Part shown: one piece after another, positions 7,096 to 48,702 of the stretch
How the letters are laid out: every line of letters begins with the position of its first letter
How positions within the stretch are numbered: the stretch's first letter is position 1
Assembly (NCBI GenBank): GCA_013286305.1
Contig: JABDFW010000008.1
Span: forward strand, 1,596 to 65,595
Direction: 5' to 3'
Length of the DNA: 64,000 bases
Origin: Bacteroidota bacterium
GTDB taxonomy: Bacteria; Bacteroidota; Bacteroidia; Chitinophagales; Chitinophagaceae
Position numbers and translations under genes: made by a program
The notes under the pieces: model-generated
What the model saw: only the letters and a program-made list of their open reading frames with translations
The model's database searches: none
What the model was told of the DNA's origin: nothing

Positions 7096-9276
7096 ATGTA
7101 TTCCGCAGAGCAAACAAAACATTTACAGCAGCAAACAAAAGCATTTATTGCCCATGCGCAGATAGATAAAAATGACGTTGAAGCTTTGCGCAATGTATTA
7201 CGGTTTCATGAATACAGGTATTACGTGTTAAATGACCCTCTTTTAGCCGACCCCGAATACGACCAGTTATTTAAACAACTTGAAAAGATTGAAGAAGGAA
7301 ACCCGGAATTGATCACCGGCGATTCCCCCACCCAAAGAGTTGGCAGCAGCCTTAACCAGTCGTTTCCTACAGTGCAGCACCTGGTTCCCATGCTAAGCTT
7401 AGACAATAGTTATGATGCCGATGACCTGCTTGATTTTGACAGGAAAGCGCGTGAATTGACAAGACTTGATGTGATTGAATATTGCATAGAGCCGAAGTTT
7501 GACGGAGCAAGTATTTCTTTAATATATGAGGATGATATGCTTGTTCGCGGTGCTACGCGGGGTGATGGTGTAGAGGGAGAAGATGTTACCACCAATATTA
7601 AACGCATACGCTCTATACCGTTGTCTGCGCCGTTTTCACAATACGGCATCCAGCAAATTGAAATACGCGGCGAAGTTTTAATGACAAAGGCTGCCTTTAA
7701 AAAATATAATGATGCACTTGCAGAACAGGGGCTTCCGCCATTGGCCAACCCGCGTAATGCAGCCAGTGGCAGCCTGCGTATTAAAGACCCCAAAATAGTT
7801 GGCAAAAGAAATCTTGAAGCGTTTTTGTATAATGTGAGCTATTATATTAGAGATGACAGATGGCAGATGACAGATGACAGGAAGAAGGAGGAAAAGGCTT
7901 CAGGCGCTTCTGTCAACTCTCATCTGTCATCTGTCAACCCTCTTTCCACCCACAGCGGTACACTGCAAATGTTATGGGAGTGTGGTTTTCGCTCTCCCCA
8001 AAAAGAAAAGATCGTTGTACAGGGCATTAATGAAGTAATTAAGCATGTACACGATTTTGAAGAAATGCGCGATACCCTGCCTTATGAAATTGACGGTATG
8101 GTAATAAAGGTAAATGAAATTGCGCTGCAGGATAAAATGGGCATGACCACCCACCACCCGCGCTGGGCAATTGCATTTAAATTTAAAGCAAGGCAGGCGA
8201 CAACTAAATTACGGGCGGTTGAATTTAATGTAGGCAGAACCGGCGCCGTTACCCCTGTTGCAAAACTTGACCCCGTGGCCGTTGGCGGCGTAACCGTTGG
8301 CAGTATATCTATGCACAACGAAGAATATATAAAAGAAAAAGACCTGATGATAGGCGATTCCGTTTTGATTGAAAGGGCCGGTGATGTAATACCACAAATT
8401 GTAAAATCTTTACCTGAATTAAGAACAGGCGATGAAAAACATATTCATTTCCCCAGGCATTGCCCTGTTTGCAAAAGTGAATTATACAAAACAGAGGATG
8501 AAGCTGTTTGGAGATGCATAAATATCGAGTGCCCCGCACAGGTGGTGGAACGCATCATTCATTTTGTAAGCAAAGATGCGATGGATATAAAAAGTTTTGG
8601 GGAAGCAAACGTGCGCAAGTTTTATGAATTGGGATTACTGAAAGATGTACCCGGCATTTATACGCTGGACTTTGATGCGATAAGCAAGCTTGAGGGGTTT
8701 GGTAAAAAATCAATTGATAATCTTCAAAGCGCCATTGAAGCATCTAAACAGCAGCCATTATACCGTTTAATATATGCGCTTGGCATTCGTTATGTAGGCG
8801 AAACAACTGCCAAAACAGTAGCCAATGCAATACACGATGTATTTGAATTGGAAAATATGAGCGATGTGCAATTGCAGCAAATGGAAGATGTTGGCGTTAA
8901 AGTAGCGCAAAGCATTTTTGCATTTTTTCAGAATAAAGAAAACATAAAAATACTTCACAAACTAAAAGAGCTTGGTTTGCAGATGTACAATATAAAGCGG
9001 TCTGCCCCAACAGAAAGCAATACCCTGCATGAACAAACATTTTTATTTACCGGAACGATGCTGAAACTTAAACGCAGCGAGGCTGAAGAAATGGTTGAAA
9101 AACACGGCGGCAAAATTGCAAGCGGCGTAAGCAGCAAATTAAATTACCTTGTAGTGGGTGAAGATGCAGGAAGCAAATTAGAAAAAGCAAAAAAAATAAA
9201 TACCATTAAGATCATCAGCGAAGATGAGTTTATAAAGTTGATTGGGGAAGAAGCCTCCTTAGCCCCCATCCCCTAA
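7096..9276 (+). CDS. ligA: NAD-dependent DNA ligase
   Basis: 726 aa. It has the KxDG adenylation motif (CIEPKFDGASISL), OB fold, Zn finger (CPVCKSEL...CINIECPAQ), HhH repeats and a C-terminal BRCT. Confidence 0.97.
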   Translation: MYSAEQTKHLQQQTKAFIAHAQIDKNDVEALRNVLRFHEYRYYVLNDPLLADPEYDQLFKQLEKIEEGNPELITGDSPTQRVGSSLNQSFPTVQHLVPMLSLDNSYDADDLLDFDRKARELTRLDVIEYCIEPKFDGASISLIYEDDMLVRGATRGDGVEGEDVTTNIKRIRSIPLSAPFSQYGIQQIEIRGEVLMTKAAFKKYNDALAEQGLPPLANPRNAASGSLRIKDPKIVGKRNLEAFLYNVSYYIRDDRWQMTDDRKKEEKASGASVNSHLSSVNPLSTHSGTLQMLWECGFRSPQKEKIVVQGINEVIKHVHDFEEMRDTLPYEIDGMVIKVNEIALQDKMGMTTHHPRWAIAFKFKARQATTKLRAVEFNVGRTGAVTPVAKLDPVAVGGVTVGSISMHNEEYIKEKDLMIGDSVLIERAGDVIPQIVKSLPELRTGDEKHIHFPRHCPVCKSELYKTEDEAVWRCINIECPAQVVERIIHFVSKDAMDIKSFGEANVRKFYELGLLKDVPGIYTLDFDAISKLEGFGKKSIDNLQSAIEASKQQPLYRLIYALGIRYVGETTAKTVANAIHDVFELENMSDVQLQQMEDVGVKVAQSIFAFFQNKENIKILHKLKELGLQMYNIKRSAPTESNTLHEQTFLFTGTMLKLKRSEAEEMVEKHGGKIASGVSSKLNYLVVGEDAGSKLEKAKKINTIKIISEDEFIKLIGEEASLAPIP
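7851..7936. repeat. Heptamer-word hairpin (GATGACA-type) inserted in frame within ligA
   Basis: The left arm AGATGACAGATGGCAGATGACAGATGACAGG (7851-7881) is imperfectly complementary to the right arm CTGTCAACTCTCATCTGTCATCTGTCA (7910-7936). It is translated as RDDRWQMTDDRKKEEKASGASVNSHLSSVN. Confidence 0.75.
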
Positions 9277-21055: not shown

Positions 21056-21150
21056 AGTTTCCAGTTTATAGTTTACAGTTTCCAGTTGGTGAGGATGGTA
21101 ACAATTTTACAAACTGAAAACTATAAACTGGAAACCGAAAACTATAAACT
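21056..21150. repeat. Short-word hairpin (CCAGTTT/ATAGTTT words) between the two ABC ATPase genes
   Basis: AGTTTCCAGTTTATAGTTTACAGTTTCCAGTT (21056-21087) is complementary in word content to AAACTGAAAACTATAAACTGGAAACCGAAAACTATAAACT (21111-21150). Confidence 0.7.
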
Positions 21151-21156
21151 AAAATT

Positions 21157-31127: not shown

Positions 31128-31335
31128 TGGGGTAAGTCCGAAAGTCCGCCGAAGCCCGAAAGTCCGGAAGAATCAGCGGCAGAGTCCGAAAGTCCGCCGA
31201 AGTCCGAGAGTCCGGAAGAATTCACATTTACATTCTTGGGGCTTCGGTCTTTCCGACTTTCGGGCTTTCCGTCTTTCGGACTCCCGGTCTTTCCGTCTCC
31301 CGGTCTTCCCGACTTTCGGACTCCCACCGGACTTT
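31128..31335. repeat. ~200-bp imperfect palindrome built from GTCCGAAAG/CCGGAAG words
   Basis: The left arm holds repeated AGTCCGAAAGTCCGCCGAAG / AGTCCGGAAGAAT words and the right arm holds the complementary CTTTCGGAC / CTTCCCG / TCTTTCC words. The centre is near GAATTCACATTTACATTC (about 31218-31235). Confidence 0.75.
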
Positions 31336-31358
31336 CCGTCTTCCCGTCTTTCTCCTAA

Positions 31359-31395
31359 CAAAAAAGGCAAAACCGTTAAACGATCTTGCCTTTTA
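31359..31395 (-). terminator. Rho-independent terminator of rplQ
   Basis: The minus strand reads AAAAGGCAA-gatcgtttaacggtt-TTGCCTTTTTT. Confidence 0.65.
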
Positions 31396-31416
31396 TATTT
31401 TCTAAAAACCCTGTCA

Positions 31417-31962
31417 TTATTCTGCCGGTTTTTCGTCGTGTTTTGTTTCTTCAATAACTTCTGCTTCAGTAACAGCTTTTTCAGCCTTTGGTGCAGTGGG
31501 TGCGGCCTTCTTAGCAGCGCCTGTACTACGTCCGCGGCGGGTTTTCTTACCTGCTTCAGCAGCAGCCTGTGCGGTTTTGCTGTAAACTTCGTTAAAGTCA
31601 ACCAGCTCTATCATCGCCTTTTCGCCATTATCACCCGGGCGAATGCCCAATTTAATTATGCGGGTATAACCGCCGGGGCGGCTTGCTACTTTAGGGCCAA
31701 CTACAGTAAATAATTCCTTTACCGCAATTTTATCCTGCAAATAGCTGAATACAACGCGGTGCTGGTGGCTTATCTCTGTCTCGTTGCCGGTTTTCTTTGT
31801 TTTTGTAATCAGTGGCTCAACGTAAGTCCTCAAAGCCTTGGCTTTTGCCAAAGTGGTGGTTATACGTTTGTGCACTATAATTTGGCTGGCTAAATTTGCC
31901 AGTAACGCATCCCTGTGTGCCTTCTTACGGCCCAGGTTGTTTATTTTGTCTCCGTGACGCAT
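31417..31962 (-). CDS. rplQ: 50S ribosomal protein L17 with Lys/Ala-rich C-terminal extension
   Basis: N-terminus [25 protein letters not shown]...; 181 aa. Confidence 0.95.
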
Positions 31963-32094
31963 GGCTGTTTAATTTTAGAATGTTGCACCGTGCCAGGAAT
32001 TGCAACATTGGAGTTTAAAAAAAGTTCCAAAAGTTCCAATGTTCAAAGTTCCAGAGTTTAGAACCGTGAACTTGTGAACTATTGAACTCGTGAA

Positions 32095-33096
32095 CTATTT
32101 ATCTATATCATCCAAACCCAGCTTGCTAAGGTCCATACCAAAATGCAAACCGCGTTCTGTTAATACCTGCTCTATTTCGCTTAACGATTTCTGGCCAAAG
32201 TTCCTGAATTTCATCAGATCTTCCTGTTCGTATTGTACCAGTTCGCTTAAGCTGTTGATCTTTGCCGCTTTTAAGCAGTTGAAAGCGCGTACTGAAAGGT
32301 CGAGGTCTTCCAGCGGGGTCTTCAATACTTTTCTTAGCTGCAGCACTTGCTCATCCACTACATCTTCTTTCTTATCTTCCTTATTATCAAAAGTGATGTT
32401 TTCATCAGTGATGATCATAAGGTGCTGAATTAAAATGCGTGAAGCCTGTTTAACCGCTTCTTCAGGATGAATAGTACCATCGGTAGCTACATCAAGAACT
32501 AATTTTTCATAGTCAGTTCTCTGTTCTACACGATAGTTCTCAATGCTGTATTTTACATTCTTTATAGGAGTGTGGATAGAGTCAATGGGAATTGATCCAA
32601 AAGTTGCATCCTTCAGCTTGTTTTCTTCAGCGGGTATATAACCACGGCCCTTGGCAATGGTTAATTCAATATCCAGCCTGCCGGTAGGATCCATGGTGCA
32701 GATAACCAGTTCAGGGTTCATCACCTGGAAGTTCTGGCTTGCTTCGCCAATATTGGCTGCGATAAACTCTGATTTGCCTTTGATAGATAATGTTATCTTT
32801 TCGCTGGCTACATCATGTTCCACTGTTTTTTTGAAACGAACCTGTTTAAGGTTCAGTATTATTTCGGTTACGTCTTCTGTAAGCCCTTTAATGGTGGCAA
32901 ATTCATGATCCACACCTTCAATCTTAATACCATTAATAGCATAACCTTCTAAGCTGCTCAACAACACTCTGCGCAAAGCATTCCCGATGGTTAAGCCAAA
33001 ACCAGGCTCAAGCGGACGAAACTCAAATTGACCTTCGAAATCGTTTGCTTTCTGTAAAACGATCTTGTCAGGTTTCTGGAAGTTTAAAATGGCCAT
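32095..33096 (-). CDS. rpoA: DNA-directed RNA polymerase alpha subunit
   Basis: 333 aa, with NALRRVLLSSLEG near the N-terminus and a C-terminal domain (LDLSVRAFNCLKAAKINSLSELV). Confidence 0.98.
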   Translation of the reverse strand: MAILNFQKPDKIVLQKANDFEGQFEFRPLEPGFGLTIGNALRRVLLSSLEGYAINGIKIEGVDHEFATIKGLTEDVTEIILNLKQVRFKKTVEHDVASEKITLSIKGKSEFIAANIGEASQNFQVMNPELVICTMDPTGRLDIELTIAKGRGYIPAEENKLKDATFGSIPIDSIHTPIKNVKYSIENYRVEQRTDYEKLVLDVATDGTIHPEEAVKQASRILIQHLMIITDENITFDNKEDKKEDVVDEQVLQLRKVLKTPLEDLDLSVRAFNCLKAAKINSLSELVQYEQEDLMKFRNFGQKSLSEIEQVLTERGLHFGMDLSKLGLDDIDK

Positions 33097-33124
33097 TTTA
33101 TATTCCTTGTTTTGTGCTCTTAAT

Positions 33125-33162
33125 CCCCGTCCGACCGTGTCATCCCGGGCGGGCCTAAAGGG
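33125..33162. repeat. GC-rich hairpin repeat, long form (CCCCGTCCG-N-CGGGCGGGCCTAAAGGG)
   Basis: CCCCGTCCGACCGTGTCATCCCGGGCGGGCCTAAAGGG closely matches the copies at 56486-56529 and 48089-48133. A short-form copy, CCCCCTTTAGGGGCTGGGGGC, is at 33219-33239. Confidence 0.75.
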
Positions 33163-33238
33163 ACTTAAAGCGGTTTATATTTCTAATTTCTTACTGCGCC
33201 ATTGCAGTTCCCTTTCTTCCCCCTTTAGGGGCTGGGGG

Positions 33239-33844
33239 CTACTTACTGTACAACTCCACTATCAGCTGCTCCTTAATGTTCTCAGGAACACTTTCCCTTT
33301 CAGGATAAGCGATGAATGTACCTTTTTTCTCAGCATCATTCCAGTCAAGCCAGTTGAATTTTGCATTCTTGCCGCGAATCTGGCTTGTTAAAGAAGTATT
33401 GCCTTCGCTTTTTTCCTTGAAACCTACGCTGTCGCCTGGTTTTAACTGGAAAGAAGGAATGTTAACCACTTCACCATTTACAGTAACATGCTTATGGCTT
33501 ACCAATTGGCGTGCCGCAGGCCTTGAAGGTGCAATACCCAGGCGATAGACTGTATTATCCAAACGGGACTCAAGCAACCTGATGAGGTTTTCGCCGGTAA
33601 CGCCTTTTATGCGGGCTGCTTCTTCAAAAGTGTTGCGGAATTGTTTTTCCAGCACACCATACGTGTACTTGGCCTTTTGTTTTTCTTTTAACTGTGTTGC
33701 ATACTCACCCGGCGTTTTACGCTTTTTAGCAGCGCCATGCTGTCCCGGAGGGACACTGTTTTTTGTTAACCATTTACCATTGCCAAGAATGGGTTCGCCG
33801 AACCTTCGGCAAATCTTTGTTTTTGGTCCCGTGTAACGTGCCAT
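33239..33844 (-). CDS. rpsD: 30S ribosomal protein S4
   Basis: [19 protein letters not shown]...; 201 aa. Confidence 0.98.
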
Positions 33845-33927
33845 AATTTTTGTTGTTGATTTTTTGGTGACGATGTGTAATCATTAAAAATCTAAAATCA
33901 ATTACACACCCATTTATAAAAATTTTT

Positions 33928-33992
33928 GATCTTGAGATTTTGCGATTTTGTGATTTAAAAAGAAATCACAAAATCCCTCAATCCCGAAATCA
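33928..33992. repeat. Short-word hairpin (GATTTTG words) in the rpsK-rpsD spacer
   Basis: GATTTTGTGATTT (33944-33956) and AAATCACAAAATC (33964-33976) are exact complements. The flanking words are partly complementary. Confidence 0.65.
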
Positions 33993-34000
33993 GCAATTAC

Positions 34001-34408
34001 TTAAACTCTTCTCTTTTTAGGAGGGCGGCAACCATTGTGCGGCAAAGGAGTAACATCTTTTATCATAGATATTTCAATACCGCTTTGTGCCAGTGCGCGA
34101 ATAGCTCCTTCGCGTCCTGCGCCAGGGCCTTTTACATAAACATCAACTCTTTTCAAACCAGCTTCCATAGCAACCTTAGCAGCATCCTGCGATGCAGTTT
34201 GTGCGGCATGCGGTGTGTTCTTTTTGGAACCCTTAAAACCCATTTTACCGGCTGATGACCAACTGATAAGCTGTCCCTGCTTGTTGGTTAATGAAATGAT
34301 AACATTGTTGAAAGTGGCATTGATGTGGGCATCGCCATATGCATCCACTTTTACCACTCTTTTTTTGCTGGTTGTTTTTACATTACCAGCCTGTTGTGCT
34401 TTTGCCAT
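34001..34408 (-). CDS. rpsK: 30S ribosomal protein S11
   Basis: Start [22 protein letters not shown] at 34408..34406, ending with the ...[13 protein letters not shown] tail. Confidence 0.95.
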
Positions 34409-34457
34409 AATTGTTTTTGAGGTAGTCTTCTTAAATTGTGTCCCCTCCATTCTGCTA

Positions 34458-34569
34458 AATGCAAAATATCCGGCGGATTATATAAATGTGAAAATCCCAG
34501 GTATAAAGTACCAAATTCCAAACGCAACTTTACAGTGGAATTTGGAATTTGGCTTTTGGGATTTTGCAT
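34458..34569. repeat. ~110-bp nested word hairpin filling the rpsM-rpsK spacer
   Basis: There are three nested complementary word pairs: TGCAAAAT/ATTTTGCA, AAAATCCCA/TGGGATTTT and CCAAATTCCA/TGGAATTTGG. Confidence 0.75.
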
Positions 34570-34570
34570 C

Positions 34571-34951
34571 TTATTTCTTAGGTGCCTTCTTTTTACCGGC
34601 AACTGTTTTACGCTTGCCTTTCCTGGTACGGCTGTTGGTACGGGTACGCTGGCCGCGAACCGGCAAACCTTTACGGTGGCGCAAGCCACGGTAACAGGCA
34701 ATATCAAGCAAACGCTTAATACTCATCTGTACTTCACTGCGCAAAGCGCCTTCTACCTTAAACTCATTGTTAATGATGTTACGGATAGCACCCTGCTCCT
34801 CATCATTCCACTGGCTTACCTTTTTGTCCCAGTCAATACCTGCTTTGGATAATATATACTGGGCGGTTGAACGGCCTATACCAAATATATAGGTTAAGCC
34901 TATTTCGCCTCTTTTGTTCTTTGGTAAGTCTATACCGGCAATACGAGCCAT
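34571..34951 (-). CDS. rpsM: 30S ribosomal protein S13
   Basis: [26 protein letters not shown]...; 126 aa. Confidence 0.98.
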
Positions 34952-35059
34952 ACTTTAATTTACGATTTTTTGATTTTTGATTTTGGGATTGAAATGGGAG
35001 AGCAAATCTGCCACAAAGTGACCCATTCGGGCAATCGCCACCGCCAATCCGCAATTGTC

Positions 35060-35176
35060 TTATCCCTGGCGCTGTTTAAAGCGGGGATTCTTTTTGTTAA
35101 TAATATACAGCTTGCCCTTTCTGCGAACGATCTTGCAGTCAACGCTACGCTTTTTTACTGATGCTCTAACTTTCAT
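35060..35176 (-). CDS. rpmJ: 50S ribosomal protein L36
   Basis: This 38-aa ORF is not in the track. Its translation is [38 protein letters not shown], and it lies between infA and rpsM as expected. Confidence 0.9.
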
Positions 35177-35195: not shown

Positions 35196-35414
35196 CTATT
35201 TATACCTGAAAATGATCCTTCCCCTTGACAGATCGTAAGGGCTCATTTCAACCCCAACCTTATCTCCCGGTAAAATTCTAATGTAATTCATCCGCATTTT
35301 TCCTGAAATGGTTGCCAGTATTTCATGACCGTTTTCGAGTTTAACCCTGAACATTGCGTTGCTCAGAGCCTCCAGGATAACACCATCTTGTTTAATGAGC
35401 GGCTGTTTCGACAT
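35196..35414 (-). CDS. infA: Translation initiation factor IF-1
   Basis: 72 aa: [41 protein letters not shown]... Confidence 0.98.
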
Positions 35415-35519
35415 AATTTTTGGGAGCGCAAAGATAATGCAATGAGGTGGAATAAGAAAAATTTATCAAATAAATTTCCACATTTAAATGAATTTCAGGG
35501 CAAAAAACGCCTTTATTGG

Positions 35520-38354
35520 CTAATTTAATATTATAATGGGCGCAATTATCTCTAATATATTACCTCCGCCGTTTAATAAATGGCTGTAACGCATCCCTAT
35601 TGTAACAGGCTGCTCATTCCAAATTTTGGCATCAAGCAAAACCTCTGTACCAAAACTGTTAAAATTTGTTATAGTTTGATATCTAAGGCTTTTGACGGCA
35701 AAATAATCAAAGAATATATTTGCCCGTACCCGATGGATAAAGGCGAGGTTAGCAAAACCCCAATCCGGGTAAGCTAATGGAAAATGATAATTAAACCCGG
35801 CTTTCCACATACGGGGGTAATCCGGTAGATTGCGATAACCCCGGGCGGTAGGGAAATCATTGGTATAATAACGGGGGCCTATGCCCAAAGTATCCCTGGC
35901 TTGGTAAGCCGAGTTTATTACAAGATTGTGGGTACTAAACAAACCCGGAAGGTAAAAGGAACTGTTTGCCAAAAACTGGTACGCGGTCCTGTTTTCTGCA
36001 CTGCTTTTTAATTGAAGCGTAACCACCTGCGCCCAGTGAGGGTATATCTGCTTTACCCCCTGCTGAATTTGGCTAACAAAAATTATACGGTATTGCAGGT
36101 ATCTCAAATCATCATTCGAAAAAAATTGCTTTGCCACCCCTTTATAATTAATAGAGCTGTAATTATAAGTAGCAGATAAAGTAAGCGTACGGTATTGCCT
36201 GCCTTCAGAAAAATTAAATGGCAATTGTAATCCCCCTGAAACATTAAATTCATTCCATTTAAAAGTAGTGTCCGCGTTATAAAAAACGCTTCGGTTATAT
36301 GTTTTATTTATATCAAACACAGGTTCTACATAGGTACCCCCATAAATGCCGGAAAACCCAAATTGATTATATCTTTCATTATGGTTATGTGTATAATATA
36401 GCTGGGTTTGCAACGTATAAAGCACATCCTGCCCATATAAAATAATTGAGGTGTTGGGATAATCATAAAGAGGCCGGTAGCTGTGCAGGTTTATTAAATG
36501 TGTGGTCTTTGGATATATTTTTACAGGATAGACACTGTCCTTAATGGATACCAGCAGGTTATTATCAACAGCATTAAAAGGCGTTCTTACATATAGGTTT
36601 TTTAGCGTATCGCCCGGCTGTGCTGCCTGCCAGGAGGTATTAAATATAGCCAACCTGTAGCCATCGGCTGTAAAAGCAGAGGCAACAAGCTGCCTGTCTT
36701 TATTAAAGACGGCCTGGTAAAGCCCTGTGGCATAGCGCGCGAGCCTAAAATCCTGGTGCTTTGATTCAACATACGCCCATATTTCGTCATAACCATTGTT
36801 TGAGCAGGTATATAACAATGTATCGCCCTGCACAACGGGATAACCTAATATACGGTTCCTGAAATTAAGCACAACAGTAACACTGTCGTCGGAGATGTTT
36901 CTTTTCTCAATCCCCATATCGCCCCTGTTATCTCTTGTTATTTCATAAATGAATTTATCGTCAGAAGAAAATTTTGGATATGAGTAGATGATCGCATTTT
37001 TGTTGCTCCACTCTTTTAATATTTTTCCATCTGCTGCATTAAGCAAAACAAGGGTAGCACGCAGCCCGGGTTCAATTTTAACAGTTACGATCAATTTGCC
37101 GTCATGAGATATATCGGGTGAAAAATATTTTGTGCTGTGCTGAATAGTTTTGGTCGCTCCTGCACGGGCAGTAAACCCCGGGCCTGAAATAACAGTTACA
37201 ATTTCCGGTTTTTCAATATCCACTACTTTTATTATACTGTAATCCCTGTTGCCCCAGCGTGAATCAGCTTTAAAAGCCGCATAAACGATCTTACCGTTGT
37301 TATAAGAAAAATAATCATCATAGGCAATATCCCTCACAACAATATTCTCCTCCGTGCCATCGGGGTGTTTTATGATAAAATGCGGAATTTCTTTATAACT
37401 GTTTTTCAAAACTAATAAACTCCCATCGGGCAACAGGTAAGGGTATTTATAATCAGTTACATTGTTTTTTTCTATAGATGTTATCCAGTTAACCTGTGCA
37501 AGCGTATCGTTTTTCCATTGGTCATGGTAAAAGTCAAATGCCTCGTTTACAAATTGCGTGAACGAAATACCGGAATACTTTTTAACCGCGTGCTGAAATG
37601 GATAAAAAAGCGGATGGAAAGCAGATGCGTCTTCCGTTACCTTTCTCCAAAAATCAAGGCCGTATTTATCCCTTCCATACGCCACCAGCATATAGCCGAT
37701 GGGGTAATGATCGGGTATATAGTGTTGGTACGACCCATTGCGCAACTGCATATAGGTATAATGCTTGCCAAGGCCAAAGATACTCCGGTACCCGGCAAAA
37801 AAAGCGGGCAGGCGGCCCCTTCCCTGGTGGCTTAACAATGTTTCATTGTAAACGGCATCCCCTTCAAAAAACCAGTTTGGTATTGAGGCTGCATTACCAA
37901 GGTCCTGGCCCTGCTCACCAAAAAGAAAGGAAAGCCCTTTAGACAACCCGCGGTCAAAATTGCTGTATTGCTGCACGTGCCTGAATTCGTGGATAGACAG
38001 GTTATCTCCCCAGTTTTGGGCGCCTAATTCAAACGCATTTTGCGGCGGGGTTAAATAAAACTCGCTGCGGTAGGGCGCCAACGCTACATAACCATTTGTA
38101 ATGGATGAGTTGCTTTGCAGGATGATATTAACCTTTCTTAATTTGCTTCCAATGGTGGCGCTATAATTTTTTTGAAGCGTATGAGTGATAGAAGCTATTC
38201 GCTGCGCTATTGAGTCAAGCCCTTTAGGATAAATAACCCGCACAACATCTGTATTTACCTGCCGCCATTCAATGGATGAGGGGTTGCCGCCAAACTGTTG
38301 TGCGTAAGCAAGGTGGCAAGCAAAAAGTGAAATTACAAAAATGGCTTTCTTCAT
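35520..38354 (-). CDS. Large secreted protein (944 aa) with an HExxH motif; central beta-propeller-like region inferred
   Basis: Signal peptide MKKAIFVISLFACHLAYAQ, HExxH at SIHEFRHVQQ, and a Tyr/Asn-rich C-terminal third suggestive of a beta-rich or barrel domain. The function is not established. Confidence 0.6.
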   Translation of the reverse strand: MKKAIFVISLFACHLAYAQQFGGNPSSIEWRQVNTDVVRVIYPKGLDSIAQRIASITHTLQKNYSATIGSKLRKVNIILQSNSSITNGYVALAPYRSEFYLTPPQNAFELGAQNWGDNLSIHEFRHVQQYSNFDRGLSKGLSFLFGEQGQDLGNAASIPNWFFEGDAVYNETLLSHQGRGRLPAFFAGYRSIFGLGKHYTYMQLRNGSYQHYIPDHYPIGYMLVAYGRDKYGLDFWRKVTEDASAFHPLFYPFQHAVKKYSGISFTQFVNEAFDFYHDQWKNDTLAQVNWITSIEKNNVTDYKYPYLLPDGSLLVLKNSYKEIPHFIIKHPDGTEENIVVRDIAYDDYFSYNNGKIVYAAFKADSRWGNRDYSIIKVVDIEKPEIVTVISGPGFTARAGATKTIQHSTKYFSPDISHDGKLIVTVKIEPGLRATLVLLNAADGKILKEWSNKNAIIYSYPKFSSDDKFIYEITRDNRGDMGIEKRNISDDSVTVVLNFRNRILGYPVVQGDTLLYTCSNNGYDEIWAYVESKHQDFRLARYATGLYQAVFNKDRQLVASAFTADGYRLAIFNTSWQAAQPGDTLKNLYVRTPFNAVDNNLLVSIKDSVYPVKIYPKTTHLINLHSYRPLYDYPNTSIILYGQDVLYTLQTQLYYTHNHNERYNQFGFSGIYGGTYVEPVFDINKTYNRSVFYNADTTFKWNEFNVSGGLQLPFNFSEGRQYRTLTLSATYNYSSINYKGVAKQFFSNDDLRYLQYRIIFVSQIQQGVKQIYPHWAQVVTLQLKSSAENRTAYQFLANSSFYLPGLFSTHNLVINSAYQARDTLGIGPRYYTNDFPTARGYRNLPDYPRMWKAGFNYHFPLAYPDWGFANLAFIHRVRANIFFDYFAVKSLRYQTITNFNSFGTEVLLDAKIWNEQPVTIGMRYSHLLNGGGNILEIIAPIIILN

Positions 38355-39279: not shown

Positions 39280-39524
39280 CGGATGATTTAATGTGGAGAC
39301 TTATTTTGTCAGTTTGTAGATTCGGAGGATAAAAAGTTGTTTAAAAAATCACGCCAAGGCGCAAAGCCGCAAAGAGAGTAGTAATAAATACATTTTTTTC
39401 TTTGCGTCTTTGCGAGTGGTTGGTAATAACAATCAAACCCCTTTAGTGAACTACTGAAACTTGGGAACCCGTGAACTCATTGAACATTCAAACCCTCAAA
39501 CTTTCAAACAATCAAACAAACGAA

Positions 39525-40574: not shown

Positions 40575-40692
40575 ATGATTTATTGACTAATGACCCCAAT
40601 GACTTGCCTTTTCCAATGACTTATTGACCAATGACCCAATGACTTTCCTTCTCCCCCAATGACTTACTGACTCAATGACCCAATGACTTTTT
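40575..40692. repeat. CCAATGAC-word repeat block
   Basis: At least 7 copies of (C)CAATGAC(T/C) within 120 bp, directly after the hmgA stop. The complementary GTCATTGG words occur at 21901-21940, 39130-39137/39260-39267 and 45675-45682. Confidence 0.75.
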
Positions 40693-48561: not shown

Positions 48562-48594
48562 CGCTGTTTAATTTACTTAACAAGTTGACTTTTT

Positions 48595-48702
48595 CTCTCC
48601 TCTCCCTTTAGGGTTGGGGCTTTGGCTTTTCTCTCCTCTCCCTTTAGGGTTGGGGCTTTGGCTTTTCTCCCTTCTCCCTTTAGGGCCGGGGCTTCGGCTT
48701 TT
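48595..48702. repeat. Three tandem 36-bp GC-rich repeat units abutting the thrA stop codon
   Basis: CTCTCCTCTCCCTTTAGGGTTGGGGCTTTGGCTTTT appears twice exactly (48595-48630, 48631-48666), followed by the diverged third copy CTCCCTTCTCCCTTTAGGGCCGGGGCTTCGGCTTTT (48667-48702). Confidence 0.9.

Follow-up and report, generated by a model that had tools for sequence, protein, structure and literature searches.

Gene order and spacers of the infA-rplQ operon

The ribosomal operon infA-rpmJ-rpsM-rpsK-rpsD-rpoA-rplQ lies on the minus strand of a 64-kb stretch of contig JABDFW010000008.1 (assembly GCA_013286305.1, family Chitinophagaceae), here called the window, and the spacers between its seven cistrons are the subject of this analysis (Table 1). 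The gaps measure 19 nt (infA/rpmJ), 108 nt (rpmJ/rpsM), 162 nt (rpsM/rpsK), 156 nt (rpsK/rpsD), 142 nt (rpsD/rpoA) and 132 nt (rpoA/rplQ). An independent gene call and Pfam hits on the identical public contig give the same gene boundaries, so that the gene order and the gaps of 108, 162, 156, 142 and 132 nt reported in an earlier reading of this DNA (the original prediction) are exact. Its baseline of short gaps is also correct: in E. coli K-12 the same cistrons are separated by 16, 33, 25 and 40 nt, and by that standard the spacers in the window are long. The spacers are built of two parts, a variable hairpin at the 5' end, immediately after the stop codon, and a conserved RNA motif at the 3' end before rpsK, rpsD and rplQ.

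The comparison set was obtained by an S4 protein scan of species-representative genomes, which gave the 80 closest loci (cited by L numbers), all from Chitinophagaceae or Chitinophagales. S4 identity ranges from 78 to 87% and rpoA identity reaches 92%. The seven genes were placed in each locus by tblastn and the gaps then measured; all statements about relatives cover Chitinophagaceae/Chitinophagales loci. Two closer relatives, L082 and L083 (S4 97% and 95% identical), come from a protein search, among the matches listed at 85% identity or higher. Gene order and tight linkage do not vary in any of the 80 loci. The median gaps are 44 nt for infA/rpmJ, 64 nt for rpmJ/rpsM, 153 nt for rpsM/rpsK, 144 nt for rpsK/rpsD, 95 nt for rpsD/rpoA and 116 nt for rpoA/rplQ, the last four from 72-80 relatives each. 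Because the medians in the relatives are similarly long, the long spacers are an inherited Chitinophagaceae trait of the infA-rplQ unit and not a recent repeat expansion. The claim that hairpin repeats had expanded the spacers of this particular genome is therefore not borne out; equally long spacers are the norm in the 80 relatives.

The spacers were folded as mRNA and compared with 200 dinucleotide-preserving shuffles each. The rpsM/rpsK, rpsK/rpsD and rpoA/rplQ spacers have z scores of -4.8, -5.3 and -5.1, and in each case none of the 200 shuffles folds as well, whereas the folding of the rpmJ/rpsM (z -0.8) and rpsD/rpoA (z -1.6) spacers is not significant by the same comparison. Stable structure had been proposed for all of them and is thus present in three, with z about -5, and not in the other two. 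The same three spacers fall at z < -2 in 62%, 85% and 78% of the relatives, respectively. Long but unstructured spacers in relatives, which the original prediction had named as the outcome that would speak against it, are not what we find: the spacers of the relatives are equally long and also structured.

All the inverted repeats and word arrays quoted in that prediction are present in the window, but the statement that repeat DNA fills every spacer goes too far. Hairpin-forming words do exist. In three spacers, however, a third to a half of the length, at the 3' end, is conserved and single-copy, and the pair AATGTTGCA/TGCAACATT, which had been listed as a repeat, is the stem of the conserved rplQ motif. 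Two different things had been merged, namely fast-evolving post-stop hairpins, which consist of word repeats in some lineages only, and conserved, covarying, single-copy motifs. Structure between the cistrons very probably matters for regulation.

Conserved RNA motifs precede rpsK, rpsD and rplQ

The candidate leader of rplQ (protein L17) is a hairpin located 24 nt before the AUG, and covariance model R1 matches it at 31975-32012 with 44.3 bits. The form NNNNNNGYA-AUU-CC-UGACAC-GG-U-RCNNNNNN is found in 70 of 73 spacers, usually 21-29 nt before the AUG, and the loop is invariant. In an alignment of 68 distinct sequences, 91.7% of the stem cells are paired, compared to 25-38% when the partner column is slid. 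Double changes occur at 8 of 11 pairs, and none of 500 shuffles reaches the covariation score. A GUC directly before the rplQ AUG (31960-31965 in the window) is kept in at least 90% of relatives, beyond the general A-richness of the initiation region.

The motif GGGUG-NNNN-AUU... ...GAU-NNNN-CACCG precedes rpsD (protein S4) in all 80 loci. Its stem P1 shows double changes at 10 of 11 pairs, and again 0 of 500 shuffles reach the covariation score. In the relatives the loop has the form UNAUUUU(A)AGAUUUUUANU, and after the stem AAAAAAUC follows 9-16 nt before the AUG. Pairing between GAUUUUU in the loop and AAAAAUC in the 3' strand is possible in 78 of 79 loci. The pair beside the U/A run is A.U in 72 loci, C.G in 5 (CGCUUUU with AAAAGCG) and G.C in 1, and two loci that were mis-parsed automatically (L055 and L068) have the same CGC/GCG change by eye in the alignment. 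Because the changes in the loop and the 3' strand compensate each other, the alignment supports an H-type pseudoknot in the putative rpsD leader that would cover the A-rich initiation region. The original prediction had pointed to the autoregulation of this operon by S4 through mRNA structure in E. coli. An S4-type candidate does exist here, but it lies upstream of rpsD and not of rpsM, and falls outside the E. coli family of structures.

The core of the rpsK (protein S11) candidate leader comprises, in the family, a stem P1 with a CC/GG pair, an internal loop of GGAUA and GGA, and a variable hairpin P2. It lies upstream of a GAUUACCU box that is found 6-18 nt before the rpsK AUG in 73 of 79 relatives. 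Double changes are seen at all 11 consensus pairs; 85.6% of the alignment cells are paired, compared to 30-53% with the partner column slid, and the observed covariation score is reached by 0 of 500 shuffles. Model R3 matches the window with 22.5 bits (E 0.0016) and also found loci outside its own seed alignment (L014, L082 and L083). Many relatives (e.g. L016:3336-3438, L027, L034 and L060) have a long variant with an extra pseudoknot and a hairpin P3, neither of which is present in the window. In this pseudoknot the P2 loop GGUGC pairs with an upstream GCACC in 17 loci and GGUGU with ACACC in 4, and no locus is mixed. P3 and the U tract after it resemble an intrinsic terminator and stand before the GAUUACCU box (23 of 79 loci in the strict scan described below), which suggests transcription attenuation in the long-variant lineages. 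A GGAG resembling a Shine-Dalgarno (SD) sequence is located in the folded core, about 50 nt upstream of the AUG. The GAUUACCU(C) box presumably resembles GAUCACCU(CC) of the 3' tail of 16S rRNA, and in two relatives GAUCACCU is found exactly at the rpsK box. The anti-SD sequence is cited in the study of Jha et al. (2021, PMC7797042), according to which uS11 lies near bS21 and bS18, proteins that sequester this sequence.

Models R1, R2 and R3 each give one match per locus, at the expected place, and no other match in about 660 kb that include the whole 64-kb window; the three candidate leader motifs are single-copy cis elements and not repeats. None of them matches any of the 4227 families of Rfam 15 at E values up to 10 with queries of 76-111 nt, and a search of the whole window at gathering thresholds likewise gave no match for the three motifs. 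The Rfam leader families have no match in 33835-33945 or in the 4.3-kb region at E up to 10, nor in eight relatives at E up to 5, and the Rfam L17 leader has none in 31955-32030 at E up to 10. The low-stringency matches that did appear were set aside, as they consist only of microRNA-type noise on long hairpins and of sub-threshold Alpha_RBS. Upstream of rpoA, rpsM and rpmJ we find no conserved structure in the relatives, only A-rich leaders.

A conserved, covarying structure directly upstream of a cistron, as is general for ribosomal-protein leaders, is thus found before rpsK, rpsD and rplQ. Published S4 leaders of Bacteroidia and Flavobacteria stand directly before rpsD, and the L17 leader of Actino- and Proteobacteria precedes rplQ (PMC7247131). 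The rpsD motif, directly upstream of its gene in 80 of 80 relatives, and the rplQ motif occupy these same positions. The 2020 leader survey contains nothing for Chitinophagia and no S11 leader (Eckert & Weinberg, PMC7247131), and our literature searches found no description of the three motifs or of word hairpins in Chitinophagaceae. Judged from the alignments and their gene context, the three motifs are most likely autoregulatory ribosomal-protein leaders for S11, S4 and L17. The kind of system is known, while the structures and their arrangement appear to be undescribed.

Hairpins after the stop codons

The post-stop stem-loops begin 0-9 nt past the upstream stop codon, and in the relatives the strongest hairpin starts at a median of 3-7 nt past the stop. 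In the window they consist of tandem 7-8-nt words on one arm with the complements on the other, and the hairpin after rpsM starts at the very first base after the stop codon. The words of the three strong hairpins (after rpsM, rpsK and rpoA) are essentially confined to their own hairpin. The one dispersed repeat of the operon spacers is CCCTAAAGGG, found between rpsD and rpoA; its family has 25 matches in the window against 4.3 expected. Dispersal of the kind typical of repetitive extragenic palindromes (REPs) or miniature inverted-repeat transposable elements (MITEs) is accordingly seen for CCCTAAAGGG only and not for the three word hairpins, and the GC-rich family copies that had been noted in the rpsD/rpoA gap correspond to its two inverted copies. 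The CCCTAAAGGG core is also found inside a 36-nt unit repeated about 3 times at 48591-48702 of the window, and the element occurs in the rpoA/rplQ spacers of the relatives L024, L044 and L064.

With the leaders trimmed off and a post-stop hairpin defined as -10 kcal/mol or better, a hairpin is found in 71% of relatives after rpsM, 72% after rpsK, 67% after rpoA, 50% after rpsD, 35% after rpmJ and 13% after infA. The highest frequencies are thus those of the sites that directly precede a cistron with a candidate leader. Within the operon of the window, each of the five internal gene ends has a hairpin of -22 kcal/mol or better, compared to about 5 of 38 other gene ends that reach -20 kcal/mol. 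Many relatives have ordinary GC-rich stems, and not words, at the post-stop site.

Position and stability of the hairpins persist family-wide while their sequence turns over fast. The rpsM hairpin is kept in L082 and half-replaced in L083; the rpsK hairpin has a different word set and is 50-60 nt longer in both; the words of the rpoA hairpin are common to L082 and absent from L083. All three leaders are retained in L082 and L083 with compensatory changes while the hairpins change more. Across the family, the post-rpsK hairpins contain about 10 GAUUU/AAAUC words per kb, an enrichment over the roughly 2 per kb of GAUUU elsewhere. The putative S4 pseudoknot has the same words in its two strands, and the AAAAAUC triplet repeat also precedes rpsM. 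An alternative pairing between hairpin arms and the S4 leader is conceivable.

The word-hairpin type is genome-wide and not specific to the operon. Between or near unrelated genes of the window, hairpins of the same style are formed by AGTTTAC/AAACTAT (21056-21151), AGATGAC/TCTGTCA (7851-7936) and CGCAAAGC/TCTTTGCG (39352-39414).

Two further candidates were rejected. The sense hairpins are more stable than the antisense ones, but this asymmetry was dropped as a sign of RNA-level selection, since a coding-sequence control has the same bias in the unbiased version of the comparison. The 110-bp nested hairpin that had been proposed for the rpsM/rpsK gap was likewise discarded: the outermost of its arms (34459-34467/34561-34569) share bases with P2 of the rpsK leader, and their pairing is not conserved in L082 and L083. 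As a possible alternative structure, they would join the bases that directly follow the rpsM stop to the 5' strand of P2.

Promoter and terminators

A sigma-70 promoter scan is inapplicable to Bacteroidetes, and the TAnnTTTG box was used in its place. Of 74 relatives, 71 (96%) have such a box in the 120 nt before infA, compared to 0-7% of relatives for the internal spacers. In the window, TATCTTTG lies 15 nt upstream of the infA AUG, so that the leader would be very short, and this box is likely to be the single promoter of the block. At the other end of the operon a canonical intrinsic terminator follows rplQ.

Terminator-like sites were called with a strict scan for a stem plus a U tract. 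This replaced a count of U tails after minimum-free-energy domains, which was insensitive: the true rplQ terminator had been merged into a larger domain. The strict scan finds a site after rplQ in 61% of relatives, compared to 4% of shuffles, and after rpsK in 14%, rpoA in 15% and rpsD in 1%. After rpsM the figure is 44%, mostly owing to P3 of the rpsK leader, and a site within 25 nt of the rpsM stop is found in 14 of 79 loci. Two scans of the window spacers gave no terminator-like site on the mRNA strand; the rpoA hairpin alone of the spacer hairpins is trailed by seven U. Because the -7 box is almost confined to the region upstream of infA and strict terminator-like sites are few in the spacers, we take the hairpins to be intra-operonic. 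At most, some of them would be leaky terminators.

Table 1 Genes, RNA elements and repeats of the infA-rplQ operon, with window coordinates
Feature	Position	Strand	Description
-7 box TATCTTTG	35429-35436	-	Bacteroidetes type, upstream of infA; TAnnTTTG match
infA	35196-35414	-	gene call
rpmJ	35060-35176	-	gene call
Hairpin after rpmJ	34983-35054	-	weak; words GCGGAUUG/GCGAUUG; -24.5 kcal/mol, z -0.8, not significant
AAAAAUC tandem	34964-34984	-	about 3 copies in the A-rich rpsM leader; tandem repeat finder, period 7
rpsM	34571-34951	-	gene call
Word hairpin after rpsM	34485-34570	-	CCAAAUU paired with GGAAUUUGG; -30 kcal/mol domain
rpsM/rpsK arms	34491-34520/34536-34565 and 34459-34467/34561-34569		inverted repeat
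Candidate rpsK leader core	34433-34484	-	P1 (UCC-g-CC with GGGGA), internal loop GGAUA/UGGA, P2 UUUUGC-AUUUA-GCAGAA; short variant
GACUACCU box	34420-34427	-	family consensus GAUUACCU; 11 nt before rpsK AUG
rpsK	34001-34408	-	gene call
Word hairpin after rpsK	33921-33998	-	GAUUU paired with AAAUC; -28.9 kcal/mol
rpsK/rpsD arms	33921-33956/33963-33998		inverted repeat
Candidate rpsD leader P1	33872-33910	-	11-bp stem, loop GAUUUUAGAUUUUUAAU; model R2 match 33842-33934, 78.5 bits
AAAAAAUC	33858-33865	-	13 nt before rpsD AUG; putative 3' pseudoknot strand (33859-33865) for loop GAUUUUU (33886-33892)
rpsD	33239-33844	-	gene call
Two inverted CCCTAAAGGG copies	33153-33230	-	dispersed GC-rich element, rpsD/rpoA spacer
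CCTAAAGGG/CCCTTTAGG	33154-33162/33221-33229		rpsD/rpoA inverted repeat
rpoA	32095-33096	-	gene call
rpoA/rplQ word arrays	32020-32058 and 32066-32099
Word hairpin after rpoA	32022-32089	-	AGUUCAC paired with GGAACUU, then seven-U run; -26 kcal/mol
Candidate rplQ leader hairpin	31979-32009	-	9-bp stem AATGTTGCA/TGCAACATT (31979-31987/32001-32009), AUU bulge, CC/GG pair, loop UGGCAC
rplQ	31417-31962	-	gene call
Intrinsic terminator after rplQ	31357-31399	-	canonical, operon end; GGCAAGAUCGUU...AACGGUUUUGCC then UUUUUUG, z -4.3

Interpretation of the modular spacers

On balance we lean towards a reading in which the spacers are inherited modules, each composed of an insulating post-stop hairpin and, before rpsK, rpsD and rplQ, a private autoregulatory leader. 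Bacteroidetes mRNAs initiate translation without SD pairing (PMC7797042), which should make them dependent on an open A-rich region for initiation. Each leader would set a protein-bindable fold against or across this region. S11, S4 or L17, when exceeding free rRNA, would bind the element just upstream of its own cistron, and the bound fold would occlude the initiation region, so that each cistron would be repressed separately. The post-stop hairpins may insulate the units at the RNA level. They could hold back 3'-to-5' decay once a repressed downstream unit is being degraded, serve as a processing site or a partial (leaky) terminator, or block ribosomes that would slide into the next cistron after termination. 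The anatomy of the spacers, their conservation and covariation, the single-copy status of the motifs, the near absence of promoter boxes inside the operon and the rapid change of the hairpins are observed directly. Our inferences concern the ligands, the repression by them and what the hairpins do.

Several observations weigh against this reading. The covariation in the S4 pseudoknot comes from few clades and possibly reflects only 2-3 events, and the rpsK element of the window is a weak short variant, at 22.5 bits. The putative ligands S11, S4 and L17 are assigned from position alone. A hairpin is missing in 28-33% of relatives at each of the three sites and is thus not indispensable, and the word hairpins among unrelated genes of the window fit a genome-wide mutational origin. 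The strand-asymmetry test gave no support to RNA-level selection.

Some of these points would be expected if the hairpin repeats to which the original prediction ascribed the expansion of the spacers were neutral or selfish DNA that accumulates wherever intergenic space tolerates it, with no more than incidental consequences for the operon. Word hairpins of the same style do lie between unrelated genes, the hairpins turn over between relatives whose S4 proteins are 95-97% identical, the CCCTAAAGGG element in rpsD/rpoA is dispersed, and more than a quarter of the relatives (the 28-33% above) lack a post-stop hairpin at a given site. We nevertheless consider repeat inflation unlikely. Spacer length is conserved family-wide regardless of repeat content, about half of three spacers is single-copy and covarying, and no dispersed element is the source of the words, which are local. 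The hairpins are fixed 0-9 nt past the stops, with GC-rich stems in place of words in many relatives, and they are enriched in the operon compared to the other gene ends of the window.

It is improbable that the hairpins are efficient terminators and that rpsK, rpsD-rpoA and rplQ are each transcribed separately from promoters that have escaped recognition, the motifs being ordinary 5' untranslated leaders of monocistronic mRNAs. The contrast in TAnnTTTG boxes (96% upstream of infA, 0-7% in internal spacers) speaks against such promoters, the spacers have far fewer strict terminator-like sites than the region after rplQ (61%), none was called on the mRNA strand of the window spacers, and gene order and tight linkage are invariant in 80 of 80 loci. 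This has to be set against the post-stop hairpins after rpsM, rpsK and rpoA, which are about as frequent as after the terminal rplQ, the seven U that trail the rpoA hairpin of the window, and the strict sites after rpsK and rpoA in 14-15% of relatives and within 25 nt of the rpsM stop in 14 of 79. Even less probable, in our view, is that the motifs are real RNA structures that do not sense ribosomal proteins and serve as signals for RNases and processing or as enhancers of SD-less initiation. All three do have an A-rich initiation region within 10-30 nt, the searches revealed no resemblance to a known ribosomal-protein leader, and the ligands follow from position only. However, each motif is specific to its gene and has its own fold, whereas a general signal should recur, and there is no other copy in 660 kb; rpoA and rpsM are without such motifs; and the positions match those of known S4 and L17 leaders of other lineages (PMC7247131).

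A bolder extension of the modular reading combines two ideas. The rpsK element would be the first uS11-responsive autoregulatory RNA that mimics the 16S 3' tail, with the GAUUACCU(C) box at the AUG and the GGAG held in P1/P2, and terminating ribosomes would also unzip the post-stop hairpins, whose arms would remodel the downstream leaders. We regard this combination as quite doubtful. If true, the rpsK mimicry would tie the supply of S11 to the anti-SD sequestration peculiar to Bacteroidetes, and the freed hairpin arms, such as AAAAUC words acting against the S4 pseudoknot, would provide a structure-mediated translational coupling without SD sequences.

Relation to known systems

The S4 operator of the E. 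coli alpha operon (RF00140, Alpha_RBS) belongs to the same operon and is also an mRNA pseudoknot over the ribosome-binding region, which may trap the 30S subunit or keep it out, with S4 as the presumed signal. It differs in its location at rpsM and in its control of the entire operon through coupling, whereas the putative structure in the window is a simple H-type pseudoknot upstream of rpsD with no shared sequence. The best Alpha_RBS score in the window is 20.3 bits, compared to a gathering score of 38, and the match is at rpsM (34919-35009) and not at rpsD. An operator of the E. coli type at rpsM is also not seen in the structural data: there is no conserved structure upstream of rpsM in the relatives, and the spacer has a z score of -0.8. 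Sub-threshold Alpha_RBS matches of 19.9-25.6 bits are found at the rpsM start in 6 of 8 relatives (L003, L007, L017, L045, L060 and L068), and most likely reflect the conserved rpsM coding sequence and its A-rich leader.

The S4 leaders of Bacteroidia and Flavobacteria and the L17 leaders of Actino- and Proteobacteria (PMC7247131) are closer in kind. They share the positions and the short hairpin-type structure, they were also found by covariation with the ligand assigned by gene context, and the S4 leaders belong to the same phylum, but no Rfam 15 model matches the elements of the window. In the rpsU/rpsR system (PMC7797042) ribosomal proteins of the same phylum regulate their own synthesis through SD sequences, which likewise ties regulation to the 16S 3' tail. 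A strong SD sequence precedes rpsK in 14% of Bacteroidia, and none is strong for the rpsK of Chitinophagia (PMC7797042); the rpsK of the window differs from this system in having the anti-SD-like GAUUACCU box near the AUG and no functional SD sequence at -8.

The post-stop hairpins resemble other stable hairpins that stand just past a cistron within an operon. Intercistronic stem-loops include the REP sequences in malE-malF, the RNase III hairpins between the early cistrons of phage T7, and the attenuator and RNase III site of rplL-rpoB, which give the cistrons of one transcript different stabilities or cause partial termination, with no additional promoter. REPs are dispersed and have a conserved sequence, whereas the words in the window are local and lineage-specific, and are described here from the DNA alone.

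Ribosomal-protein leaders are the main bacterial means of balancing ribosome components. They differ between lineages, and little is known of them outside Proteobacteria and Firmicutes. In a large family of soil and water bacteria, one operon yields three covariation-supported candidate leaders that are absent from Rfam 15, one of them before rpsK. The operon logic would be unlike that of E. coli, with modular spacers of about 150 nt, each a hairpin plus a private leader, compared to one S4 operator and coupling across gaps of 16-40 nt. Such a logic would fit a phylum that initiates translation without SD pairing. The locus offers a tractable case for the study of stoichiometry without coupling and of the role of abundant word hairpins.

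Neighboring features of the window

Upstream of infA (35415-35520) the operon is preceded by the gene of a 944-residue protein with no Pfam hit on record, in the place that secY-map takes in many bacteria. The word GTCATTGG, in contrast to those of the operon hairpins, is repeated at scattered intergenic sites (21901, 39130, 39260, 40596-40680, 42210 and 45675). Between the rplQ terminator and carA (31134-31350) there are period-8 word arrays of the AAGTCCGA and TTCGGTCT types, and because of them the list of open reading frames shows carA with a spurious N-terminal extension of low complexity.

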